Shown here piece by piece: positions 1,954-4,661 of a stretch of DNA of 36,846 nt. A program made the position numbers and the translations under genes. Position 1 is the first letter of the stretch. Each line of letters starts with the position of its first letter. Where the stretch lies: contig JBDHKN010000047.1 of NCBI GenBank assembly GCA_039586365.1, positions 1 through 36,846 of the forward strand, written 5' to 3'. Source of the stretch: Gemmatimonadota bacterium. GTDB taxonomy: Bacteria; Gemmatimonadota; Gemmatimonadetes; Gemmatimonadales; GWC2-71-9. Below the pieces are notes generated by a model that saw only the letters and a list, made by a program, of their open reading frames with translations, searched no databases and had not been told where the DNA came from.

Positions 1954-2334
1954 ATGTCGAACTATCGAACTGTTCAAGGGGACATGCTTGCTGACACGTT
2001 CAAAGCGTTGGGGCACCCACACCGCCTGCAGATCTTCCTGCAATTGGCCACCTGTTGCGTCCCGGGCACTGCCTGTGGAGACGACAACAGTATTCGCCGC
2101 TGCGTGGGAGAACTGGCGGCACAGTTGCACATCGCCCCATCGACCGTGTCGCACCATCTGAAGGAGCTGACCCGTGCGGGGCTCATTGCCACCGAACGCT
2201 GTGGTCGGGAGATCCGCTGCTGGGTCGAACCTGAAGTGCTGCGCAAGCTGGGCGATTTTTTCACGAGCTTCATCGCCGAACCGAGTAGCACGAGCGCAAG
2301 GAGGAGTTGTGACGAAGAATGCATCACCGGATGA
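1954..2334 (+). CDS. arsR: ArsR/SmtB family transcriptional repressor of arsM
   Basis: FKALGHPHRLQIF, CVGELA and PSTVSHHLKELTRAGLI motifs, with a Cys-rich insertion TCCVPGTAC. Lies directly upstream of arsM. Start set at ATG 1954 (ORF track 1906; ATG 1984 is also possible). Confidence 0.9.
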   Translation: MSNYRTVQGDMLADTFKALGHPHRLQIFLQLATCCVPGTACGDDNSIRRCVGELAAQLHIAPSTVSHHLKELTRAGLIATERCGREIRCWVEPEVLRKLGDFFTSFIAEPSSTSARRSCDEECITG

Positions 2335-3100
2335 GATCCGGACAGCAGTGCGGAGTACCTACGGCCAGATTGTCACCACGGGAAAGACGGGCTGCGGCTG
2401 CTCTTGCGGTGACGATCCAGCCGTTTCGCCCGAAACGCTGGCGAGCGCAATGGGATACTCTAGCACGGACGTGGTTGACGTGCCTGAGGGTGCGAACTTG
2501 GGGCTGGGGTGCGGCAATCCCCACGCGATTGCATCGCTGCAGCCAGGTGAGACAGTCGTCGACCTCGGAGCGGGCGCCGGCTTCGACTGCTTTCTCGCCG
2601 CGCGACAGGTGGGCGAATCAGGCGCGGTCATCGGAGTAGACATGACGCCCGAGATGATCACGAGGGCCCGTGAGAATGCCCGGAAGGTTGGGGTGTCGAA
2701 CGTGAGCTTCCGACTGGGGGAGATCGAGCATATGCCGGTAGCGGACGACTCTGCGGACGTCATCATGTCCAACTGCGTGATCAACCTCTCTCCCGACAAG
2801 CCTCAGGTGTTCCGCGAGGCGTTCCGCGTCCTGCGCAGCGGTGGCAGGCTGGCCGTGGCAGACGTGATCGCGCTGGCACCAATGCCGCAGGAGCTTCACA
2901 GGAACATCGAGGCCTATACAAGCTGTATCTCGGGAGCCGCCCAGGCGGAGCAAGTCGAGTCGATGTTGGCAGAGGCAGGTTTCATGGACATCAGCATCAG
3001 GCCGCAAGACGCGAGTCGCGAGCTGGTTCGCGAGTGGTCGATTGGAGGAAACCTCGAGGACTACGTGGTGTCGGCGCTGATCGAAGCCAGGAAGCCCTGA
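2309..3100 (+). CDS. arsM: Arsenite S-adenosylmethionine methyltransferase
   Basis: Hallmarks ANLGLGCGNP, VVDLGAGAGFDCFLAA, GVDMTPEM, SNCVINLSPDK and SCISGA, plus N-terminal GCGCSC. GTG 2309 is preceded by AAGGAGGAG and overlaps the end of arsR. Confidence 0.95.
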   Translation: MTKNASPDEIRTAVRSTYGQIVTTGKTGCGCSCGDDPAVSPETLASAMGYSSTDVVDVPEGANLGLGCGNPHAIASLQPGETVVDLGAGAGFDCFLAARQVGESGAVIGVDMTPEMITRARENARKVGVSNVSFRLGEIEHMPVADDSADVIMSNCVINLSPDKPQVFREAFRVLRSGGRLAVADVIALAPMPQELHRNIEAYTSCISGAAQAEQVESMLAEAGFMDISIRPQDASRELVREWSIGGNLEDYVVSALIEARKP

Positions 3101-3157: not shown

Positions 3158-4249
3158 TCATCTAGTCAACAGGATCCCCCGGGACGTGGCGATCTGCCTT
3201 GCGATCCTTCCCTTCTCGGCGCTCGTCAGCCGGTGGCGTTCTGCCATCACATCATGCGAACACGAGGTGATCTTGCCGAGCACGCCCTCATAGATACCGA
3301 CGATCAGTTCGAGAAGGAATTGCCGGTCGGCACTGAGTCTGCCGTCAAGCGTCGACAGGCAAGCCCGTCCCTCCTGTGCCAGCGTCAATGCTCGCTCGAC
3401 CAGCTCGCGTACTAGGGCTCGAAGTCGGGGGCTCGCGGTTCCAGCCGCAGCGTCACGCCGGAGCGATTCCACGGTCACACCGTGAGCCGCCATGTCGTCG
3501 GCCGCGAGGTACAGCAGCCCCCGCTCACCAGTCGTCAGGTCCTCGCGCAGGTCGCGCAGGATATGGGCGATGTACGCGAATCGGCCGAGTGCCCGACCAC
3601 AACGCACGATGTCGAAGTCCTGCGGTGGGTGGAAAACTCCCTGCTCCTCAGAGGGCTCTCCAGAAATCAGGTGAAGATAGATGGTCGTCGGGGCGACCGA
3701 CGCGCCTGCCGCATAATCGAGATACTGGCTAAACGTCGCGAATTGGCCCCGCTGCAGATCCTGATGCATGGCTGCAAAGAAGTCATCCCACAGCTCTGGC
3801 GGGACGGGAAACTGCTCCACTGTCCTGGCGAACGCGGTAAGCAGTTCGCCAATGTACGGTTGATCAGTTCGCGCTGCGTCACCCGGCGCCGGCGTGTCAC
3901 CTGTCAGACAGGCCGCTATCACCTGATGCCACGCCTCGACCACGCTGGACTCCCGCGCGCGATCCTCGGCCGATGCGTATGGTCTGAACAGCAACCCGTC
4001 GACACGGTCGTCGACGATGCGCATGATCGCATAGCTCGCGCAGAACGCCCGATACCGCTCTTCCTCTCTCAAGTAACAGCTCGCGCGGTACAGGTTGTTC
4101 CGGTCCTTCGCTGCGATGGACTCGGCAATCCAGTAGACACCCGTGAGTGAGCCTGGTGTCCACACGCTCGTAACCTCAAGGTCCCCCTTGCCAGAATTGC
4201 CCCTCTTCGCATCACGTGCAGTTGATCGTGGAATGCGCACGGCATTCAT
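3158..4249 (-). CDS. Squalene/phytoene synthase family (head-to-head isoprenoid synthase fold) protein
   Basis: YAIMRIVDDRVD (first Asp-rich motif), AMHQDL, LDYAAGASVA, LGRFAYIAHILRDLREDL (second motif), GLLYL and C-terminal GIYEGVL…RHRL. The start is uncertain: ATG 4267, ATG 4249 or GTG 4165. Confidence 0.85.
   Translation of the reverse strand: MNAVRIPRSTARDAKRGNSGKGDLEVTSVWTPGSLTGVYWIAESIAAKDRNNLYRASCYLREEERYRAFCASYAIMRIVDDRVDGLLFRPYASAEDRARESSVVEAWHQVIAACLTGDTPAPGDAARTDQPYIGELLTAFARTVEQFPVPPELWDDFFAAMHQDLQRGQFATFSQYLDYAAGASVAPTTIYLHLISGEPSEEQGVFHPPQDFDIVRCGRALGRFAYIAHILRDLREDLTTGERGLLYLAADDMAAHGVTVESLRRDAAAGTASPRLRALVRELVERALTLAQEGRACLSTLDGRLSADRQFLLELIVGIYEGVLGKITSCSHDVMAERHRLTSAEKGRIARQIATSRGILLTR
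4231..4247 (-). promoter_or_regulatory. SECIS-like hairpin following the second UGA (4262-4260)
   Basis: mRNA reads UGA, 12 nt, then GAAUGC[CGUGC]GCAUUC. This is a perfect 6-bp stem with G at loop position 2. Confidence 0.5.
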
Positions 4250-4253
4250 GGTC

Positions 4254-4661
4254 CTAGCCTCAGCCATACCATGGTTTTTCGTCTACCTCCACCTGCAATC
4301 CGTCAAGCAACTTGTTCAGTCCTGCGAACACATCGACGACCGCCATGAGCTCCAGCACCCCCTCATCGTCCAGCCCGAGCTTCCGCACCGCGGAAGTGTG
4401 TACTTCAATTCAGTACTTGCATCCGCTGACGGCTGAAACAGCCACGGCGATAATCTCTTTGGTCAGCGGATCGAGCTTGCCTGTCTGTTTCATGACCGTC
4501 CTGATCTTGTTCCAGTTGACCTCCAGGTATGCCGGGTTGGGCGCCATCACCCTGTACATGTTGGGAACGAAATCGATCCCGAGCGTATCCCTGATTTCGT
4601 CATAGAGCTCTTTGACCCTGCCAGTGGCTTCCTCTTCCGGGATCATCTCAACAGATGCCAT
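4254..4661 (-). CDS. AhpD/carboxymuconolactone decarboxylase-like selenoprotein (CxxU; possible second Sec in C-terminal GUG)
   Basis: The 83-aa ORF stops at GCKY-TGA (4412-4410), exactly where the second Cys of the AhpD CxxC should be. The frame continues IEVHTSAVRKLGLDDEGVLELMAVVDVFAGLNKLLDGLQVEVDEKPWYG, then TGA (4262-4260), GGC, TAG (4256-4254). The product is 133 aa if it ends at 4260, or 135 aa with two Sec. RBS is GGAGG. Confidence 0.88.
4380..4396 (-). promoter_or_regulatory. Bacterial SECIS-like hairpin for the CxxU UGA
   Basis: mRNA reads UGA, 13 nt, then CUUCCGC[GGU]GCGGAAG. This is a perfect 7-bp stem with a G-starting loop 20 nt after the UGA. Confidence 0.75.

Follow-up and report, generated by a model that had tools for sequence, protein, structure and literature searches.

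AhpD-like and CMD-like selenoproteins, known since 2005, belong to the PF02627/TIGR00778 fold family and possess a CxxU active site in which selenocysteine (Sec, U) is the second of the two redox residues; the Sec insertion sequence (SECIS) is located in the coding sequence after the UGA codon, with one Sec per protein in the parts of the descriptions covered here (PMC1088965; PMC2398784; PMC13188914). By the counts in the GOS table (299 and 70 genes), they are among the most abundant environmental selenoprotein families. The subject of this report is a gene of this family on the minus strand of a 36,846-nucleotide stretch of a Gemmatimonadota genome (assembly GCA_039586365.1, contig JBDHKN010000047.1, positions 1 to 36,846; the whole stretch is termed the window below), whose frame contains two in-frame UGA codons, one in the active-site motif C-K-Y-U (UGA-84) and one in the penultimate position (UGA-134), each followed by a hairpin (Table 1). 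We propose, with a probability of about 0.8, that both codons are read as Sec, Sec84 in the active site and Sec134 in a C-terminal PWYG-U-G, and we suggest that the tail would act as a redox arm pairing with Sec84. Judging from sequence comparisons, the tail UGA most likely encodes a penultimate Sec served by a SECIS in the 3' untranslated region (UTR), and this predicted layout is common to relatives in many bacterial phyla.

The animal thioredoxin reductase carries a C-terminal Gly-Cys-Sec-Gly arm on a flavoprotein disulfide reductase. The parallel with this enzyme, drawn in the initial annotation, holds for the penultimate Sec, the Gly after it, and the flexible C-terminal tail that carries both, for which a role as a redox shuttle is proposed, but does not extend to the neighboring Cys of GCUG: the G-U-G tail possesses no vicinal Cys, and thus its redox partner must be located elsewhere, Sec84 being the one proposed. 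The folds are also unrelated, the AhpD-like protein having no flavin domain, so the likeness is one of analogy and not of membership. That a bacterial SECIS can act from a position past the stop codon has been established with thioredoxin reductase, whose penultimate Sec is inserted in this way on expression in E. coli (PMC11431864; PMC3834832), and the arrangement engineered there (PMC11431864) would be a natural one here. Stop-like UGA codons followed by few or no residues are likewise found in SaoC (Cys-Sec-COOH) and in the KCU-star, UXX-star, GUXX-star, and UXPK-star families of NCBIfam (Haft and Gwadz; Haft and Tolstoy), and for SaoC a natural C-terminal Sec is described that is proposed to be served by a hairpin with a G-containing loop past the real stop (bioRxiv 10.1101/2022.07.06.499078). 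These, however, are other protein families, while here the tail Sec would be added to a protein that already has one in its active site. Yet another comparison is with the ArsM/AhpD selenoprotein family NF041537, which shares an AhpD-type CxxU domain tied to an arsenite methyltransferase (ArsM), but which is a fusion listed with three Sec (UxxG, CxxU; PMC13188914), while the AhpD-like protein in question stands alone and scores 24.6 bits against a cut-off of 510. The catalogues, in the parts covered, list AhpD-like selenoproteins with one Sec only, and searches of the literature and catalogues, with Haft and Tolstoy 2025 (PMC12013261) and the BSepDB entries outside their scope, found none in which a penultimate Sec is described for this family. 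Both AhpD-like CxxU proteins and tails with a C-terminal Sec are known, but the catalogues covered do not list the two together.

The frame, the two UGA codons, and both hairpins proved to be placed correctly, to the base, in the initial annotation. An ATG start, with GGAGGG upstream, opens a protein beginning with M-A-S-V-E-M-I-P-E-E-E-A-T-G-R-V-K; the first TGA follows G-C-K-Y and precedes I-E-V-H-T-S-A-V-R-K-L-G, and the second follows D-E-K-P-W-Y-G and precedes GGC and TAG, the read-through product being M...SGCKY-U-IEVHTSAVRKLG...DEKPWYG-U-G-stop when TGA is translated as U. This product matches PF02627 (E 3.9e-16; 59.2 bits versus a cut-off of 23) and the AhpD core domain TIGR00778 (51.8 bits versus 27.8), and where the conserved helix begins it has C81-K-Y-U84 as its redox motif of the CxxC type, the Cys forms having CxxC in the same columns. 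The peroxidase-related subfamily TIGR01926, the model assigned to the "AhpD-like protein" in a 2026 review, is matched below its cut-off (65.8 versus 81.8 bits) and over residues 4-94 only; none of the selenoprotein-specific AhpD models or C-terminal-Sec models of NCBIfam is above cut-off for this protein, and the C-terminal-Sec "star" families gave no match at E <= 0.01. The closest solved structure by sequence search is 2ouw_A (E 2.5e-26; 40% identity over 130 columns), the "alkylhydroperoxidase AhpD core" of Rhodospirillum rubrum from structural genomics, a protein of similar length (138 residues, 135-136 of them modelled), with CxxC instead of CxxU, and with the alignment ending at query residue 128, before the tail. 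The same structure is the top Foldseek match (TM 0.48), confirming the AhpD/CMD fold and nothing further.

One line of evidence for the nature of UGA-134 comes from the tail position in relatives. In all of the 162 loci compared, 82 of them genome-derived (alignment score to the query of at least 377, of 87 aligned) and 80 from metagenomes, the tail codon is either TGA or a Cys codon, and TAA or TAG directly after PWYG is found in none of them (0/162); where the initial annotation had proposed a Sec, at PWYG-x-G, homologs possess Cys or TGA and then Gly. Among the genome-derived loci, 64 have TGA in both the active site and the tail, 15 have Cys codons (TGY) in both, three (L090, L103, and L118) combine a Cys active site with a TGA tail, and the opposite combination does not occur. 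The metagenome scan was seeded with P0006, a database protein "ending at PWYG," and all 80 of its loci possess the tail TGA, 79 along with an active-site TGA and one with TGT. The latter (L127) is the contig of P0006 itself, the only one of the 133-residue forms ending at PWYG whose DNA was looked at, and this DNA continues as TGA-GGN-stop. The five remaining aligned loci are more distant or broken; one of them, in another Gemmatimonadota genome (L123; G421:C134:1056-1304), is interrupted by a TAG (EKP-stop-YG), reads on for longer past the tail TGA, and is probably a pseudogene.

As to the taxonomic spread, six places in 61 related genomes match all 135 residues, each with two TGA codons and with 75-99% identity, and a 401-genome sample of the phylum adds two further full-length two-TGA copies and one broken copy. 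A scan of one genome per species revealed 80 loci across many phyla, the hosts being Gemmatimonadota, Zixiibacteriota, KSB1, Chloroflexota, Acidobacteriota, Nitrospirota, Nitrospinaceae, Desulfobacterota-type lineages, Actinomycetota, Planctomycetota, Myxococcota, and Gammaproteobacteria.

Similar observations can be made for the database proteins. Of 120 homologs (P0002-P0121), 55 end in PWYG-C-G plus 0-9 residues, 33 stop at PWYG, two are odd, and 30 print W at both Sec positions (29 with CxxW and one with SxxW, for example CxYW ... PWYGWG); these last are presumably gene calls on short metagenome contigs with TGA read as Trp, a practice that would disguise selenoproteins as ordinary proteins. 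In 29 aligned Cys-tail forms C84, C134, P130, W131, and G133 are invariant, while C81 is variable. Both UGA codons are thus found aligned with Cys in homologs, the Sec/Cys pair expected of a Sec codon. A general reading of TGA as Trp, as in code 4, was ruled out, as the aligned residues are Cys and as TGA is the usual stop in the window, ending 12 of 19 long open reading frames (ORFs), so that there is no general reassignment of this codon.

The sequence past the tail TGA is also constrained. When the 144 loci with a tail TGA are pooled into 130 distinct downstream sequences, 127 continue with GGN and three with GCN, and the next in-frame stop is near: it is two codons past the TGA in 111 sequences and never more than six codons away in any of the 130, this real stop being TAG in 67, TAA in 34, and TGA in 29. 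The UGA-GGN-UGA tails of the latter group (for example, L054, L057, L064, L075, and L079-L081) present a case in which UGA would stand for Sec at one place and for a stop six bases on, and any effect of the hairpin would have to be position-specific.

The hairpin past the tail UGA (hairpin 2) is where the comparison with relatives decides, as in the window alone it does not stand out from chance. In 128 of the 130 distinct sequences there is, past the tail TGA, a hairpin with a stem of 4 bp or more and a 5-nt loop, the loop being CGUGN in 112 of the 128 and the UGA-to-loop distance 16-22 nt in 126 of them, with a mode of 18. Where the real stop lies 2, 3, or 5 codons on, the UGA-to-loop distance is 18, 18, or 19 nt and the stop-to-loop distance is 12, 9, or 4 nt, and thus the spacing that is maintained is the one from the UGA, not the one from the real stop. 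The covariation that the initial annotation had named as a check is present across phyla: in 63 distinct sequences 92.5% of cells are paired, all seven pairs change on both sides, and there are 42 compensatory cells versus 12.8 +/- 4.0 in column shuffles (0/500 reach 42), while controls with a slid register are 19-54% paired. The variants of the stem include GGAUGC/GCAUCC, GGGUGC/GCACCC, GAGUGC/GCACUC, GAAUAC/GUAUUC, GAAUGU/ACAUUC, GGACGC/GCGUCC, and AGUCGC/GCGGCU. No conservation was seen among relatives in the sequence 3' of the hairpin, and the flanking genes vary by locus, so that the conservation of hairpin 2 is not accounted for by a downstream gene common to the loci. The covariance model R1 recognizes it as the only site in the genome (46.8 bits; the next match is at 18 bits, E 5), with no second site and hence no further tail-Sec gene revealed. 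A search of Rfam produced a single match, sR23 (E 0.88, far under the gathering score), taken as chance, and a terminator scan produced no site at hairpin 2, which is without the required T run.

The published criteria for bacterial SECIS elements are a loop of 3-9 nt, a stem of 4-16 bp, a G in the first two loop positions, a UGA-to-loop distance of 16-37 nt, and a minimum free energy of -7.5 kcal/mol or lower (PMC13188914). Hairpin 2 (loop CGUGC, 6 bp, 18 nt) is within the limits for loop, stem, G, and spacing, and so is the hairpin in the coding sequence (hairpin 1; loop GGU, 7 bp, 20 nt), which, folded alone, has -9.1 kcal/mol, lower than this limit. In the window alone the fold of hairpin 1 is not set apart from shuffles (z -1.25; 23 of 200 fold at least as well). 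Hairpin 1 differs with the active-site codon: on average 6.7 of its 7 pairs are formed in 58 distinct TGA-active forms, with compensatory variants among them, versus 2.6 of 7 in 18 Cys-active forms. In the three genome-derived loci with a Cys active site and a Sec-type tail, hairpin 1 is lost (3-4 of 7 pairs) and hairpin 2 is kept (R1 scores of 21.8-41.4 bits). L127, with the same combination of codons, retains both hairpins, suggesting a recent change.

As to the machinery, the selA, selB, selC, and selD functions that the initial annotation named as a check are all encoded in the genome, represented by selA (430.6 bits), selB (352.8 bits), selD (358.6 bits; G000:C97:171022-171954, minus strand), itself with an in-frame TGA (G-A-G-U-A-C-K), and a tRNA-Sec on contig C87. 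Taken together, the restriction of the tail codon to TGA or Cys, the GGN codon and the stop nearby, the covarying hairpin anchored to the UGA, the PWYG-C-G ends of the Cys forms, and the Sec machinery make Sec the most likely reading of the tail UGA.

A number of observations weigh against this reading. A single residue follows UGA-134, so there is no downstream homology to test. In a 56-nt stretch around hairpin 2 the fold has a z of 0.56, with 138 of 200 shuffles folding at least as well, and hairpin 2 alone has -5.3 kcal/mol versus the criterion of -7.5 or lower, although the stretch folded by the published program may differ. A clean hairpin is missing in two of the loci with a TGA tail, L096, located near a contig end, and L049, with an internal mismatch. 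A FastTree tree (157 rows) shows just two changes of state of the tail codon, and with two independent contrasts the association of the hairpin with TGA is beyond statistical test. The hairpin is also kept behind Cys codons in L088, L091, and L099, 21 nt from the Cys codon to the loop; in these Cys/Cys genes with tails such as CGGH-stop (L091:1091-1138; L099:1902-1951 and 2680-2730; L088) GAAUGC-CGUGA-GCAUUC is still there, and L099 has, in addition, an isolated second 3' fragment of the gene with the hairpin attached. These may be fossil SECIS elements, or the hairpin may have another role besides. The more distant Cys/Cys loci have no R1 match at E <= 1.

In the mechanism that we propose, SelB with Sec-tRNA(Sec) would bind hairpin 1 inside the coding sequence, 20 nt from UGA-84 to the loop, and deliver the first Sec; fifty codons on, SelB would bind hairpin 2, past the TAG and 18 nt from UGA-134 to the loop, a second Sec would be inserted at position 134, Gly would be added, and translation would stop at UAG. 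If insertion at UGA-134 failed, release factor 2 (RF2) would free a protein missing the last two residues. The tail is envisaged as an unstructured, glycine-flanked arm whose selenol could form a diselenide with Sec84, or, in the mixed forms, a selenenylsulfide; by analogy with the arm of the animal thioredoxin reductase, it may either resolve the oxidized active site or carry reducing equivalents to a partner, which in some lineages may be the neighboring arsenite methyltransferase. The main argument for this pairing is indirect: in 14 of the 120 database homologs the active site is SxxC and the tail Cys is present, so that Cys81 is lost and Cys84 and the tail Cys are kept, and the four of these inspected possess exactly two Cys, at position 84 and in the tail. 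One further protein, P0103, is devoid of Cys: it has Ser81, and W (probably TGA) both at position 84 and at the tail position. Should these two W be Sec, the proposed Sec84-Sec134 couple would provide its sole redox residues. An AlphaFold2 model based on the 29 Cys-tail homologs (mean predicted local distance difference test score, pLDDT, of 73.6) shows residues 123-135 without secondary structure and residues 130-135 with pLDDT below 50, although low values in the tail may merely reflect the missing oligomer context, a further caution as to the arm. A model computed without an alignment was poor (pLDDT 54.5) and was discarded.

The alternative that survives best, though we consider it unlikely, also has both UGA codons read as Sec, but with Cys81, Sec84, and Sec134 forming a three-chalcogen site for metalloids or metals, As(III) above all, the protein then acting as a chaperone or donor for the arsenite methyltransferase. 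As(III) prefers three thiolate ligands, which counts in favor of such a site, and so do some of the neighboring genes. In the window, as well as in L041, L045, L046, L057, L058, and L104 (Gemmatimonadota and Myxococcota), the AhpD-like gene has an ArsM gene (over the NF008823 cut-off) within approximately 1.5 kb, and in L114 (Actinomycetes) it has an ArsM-like ORF below that cut-off, the seven loci thus coming from at least three phyla; an ArsR-type regulator is found beside L086. This proximity hints at a functional link, echoing the fused ArsM/AhpD selenoprotein family of NCBIfam, NF041537. However, approximately 67 of the 75 loci surveyed have no arsenic gene within 1.5 kb, the SxxC forms retain only two of the three ligands, and the AhpD family is known for its CxxC oxidoreductases. 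The survey of flanks (148 ORFs from the 75 loci) found no universal partner; the recurrent neighbors are ArsM, extracytoplasmic function (ECF) sigma factors, PEMT/ICMT methyltransferases, and SpoIIE. When longer, fused forms of the subfamily were searched for, none was found, the two matches being read as a truncated or merged gene call (P0122) and as a read-on past the tail (P0123).

Less probable still, and to our mind improbable, is that both readings occur, with RF2 ending most chains at UGA-134 or UGA-84 when selenium is scarce, so that, through the tail, the selenium supply would switch the enzyme between a form with and a form without it. In E. coli, RF2 and recoding are in competition, and recoding is reported to reach 30-40% (PMC4513850), and a chain ended at UGA-134, only two residues short, would probably fold; but the tail Cys is invariant in the Cys forms, and thus the tailed form appears to be the selected one. 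Last and least credible is that UGA-134 is a plain stop, the protein ending at PWYG, the hairpin being a 3'-end element (for mRNA stabilization, protein binding, or weak termination), and the C-G tails elsewhere an unrelated short extension: while TGA is the commonest stop in the window, hairpin 2 is weak and no better than shuffles, the same hairpin follows some Cys-tail genes, in which no recoding is needed, and public gene calls end 33 of 120 homologs at PWYG, a plain stop would leave unexplained the GGN after the TGA in 127/130 sequences and the in-frame stop within six codons in 130/130, the hairpin at a fixed distance from the TGA and not from the real stop, the invariant Cys aligned in the Cys forms, and the lack of TAA or TAG at the tail position in all 162 loci, and the scan showed no terminator-like site at the hairpin.

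If Sec is the correct reading at both positions, the consequences extend beyond this one gene. Tentatively, and at somewhat less than even odds, we suggest a widespread AhpD-like subfamily in which a penultimate Sec forms a diselenide couple with the active-site Sec and is served by a strongly conserved 3' UTR SECIS with a GCCGUGNGC core; those of its members in which Cys takes the active site and Sec is confined to the tail would be invisible to current pipelines, because the frame looks complete at the UGA, with -U-G tails possibly a general hidden class in bacteria. With a second, cut-off Sec in a large subfamily, selenoproteome counts and figures of Sec per protein would be too low, the members whose only Sec is in the tail would go wholly unrecognized as selenoproteins, and methods that need homology past the UGA would miss such tails. 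There would also be a natural bacterial counterpart to the 3' UTR SECIS that engineers use when E. coli is made to produce thioredoxin reductase. For a small thiol oxidoreductase, a Sec-Sec couple would be chemically unusual, and testable, and hairpin 2, being compact and highly conserved, could be used as a search model.

Table 1. Features of the AhpD-like locus and its neighbors, in window coordinates.
Feature	Position	Strand	Basis
AhpD/CMD-family coding sequence (135 residues and TAG, with both UGA as predicted Sec)	4254..4661	-	Translation; PF02627, TIGR00778; nearest structure 2ouw_A
UGA-84 (TGA 4412-4410), predicted Sec codon of the C-K-Y-U active-site motif	4410..4412	-	Aligned to second Cys of CxxC in Cys-form homologs
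Putative SECIS 1, CUUCCGC-GGU-GCGGAAG (arms 4396-4390 and 4386-4380), 13 nt past UGA-84, within the coding sequence	4380..4396	-	Fold; pairing in TGA-active versus Cys-active forms
UGA-134 (TGA 4262-4260), predicted penultimate Sec codon	4260..4262	-	TGA/TGY in 82/82 genome-derived loci, TGA in 80/80 metagenome loci; Cys forms end PWYG-C-G
GGC (Gly135, 4259-4257) and TAG (4256-4254), real stop	4254..4259	-	GGN after tail TGA in 127/130; in-frame stop within six codons in 130/130
Putative SECIS 2, GAAUGC-CGUGC-GCAUUC (arms 4247-4242 and 4236-4231), 12 nt past UGA-134, beyond TAG	4231..4247	-	Covariation; UGA-anchored distance; covariance model
Next gene, squalene/phytoene synthase family; candidate starts ATG 4267, ATG 4249, GTG 4165	3158..4267	-	PF00494 E 2.9e-31
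Arsenite methyltransferase ArsM, convergent, approximately 1.1 kb from the AhpD-like gene	2174..3100	+	NF008823 350.4 bits versus cut-off 263

Whether hairpin 2 overlaps with the next gene, of the squalene/phytoene synthase family, depends on which of its three candidate starts is used. The same gene order is found in L045, from the same genus, and this neighbor is absent at L041, a 93%-identical locus. The genome encodes a second AhpD-like protein (G000:C56:50724-50996, plus strand), a distant paralog of 36% identity. It contains a single TGA, in C-K-Y-U, followed at 20 nt by the GGC loop of a 6-bp hairpin. One last observation is presented by L114, from an Actinomycetes metagenome-assembled genome, in which the ArsM-like ORF (L114:326-1105, plus strand) beside a Cys/Cys AhpD-like gene possesses an in-frame TGA of its own (...DLWCA-U-IAGG...), corresponding to the UxxG motif of the ArsM selenoprotein families, at which the ORF called with translation table 11 ends, after 201 residues.

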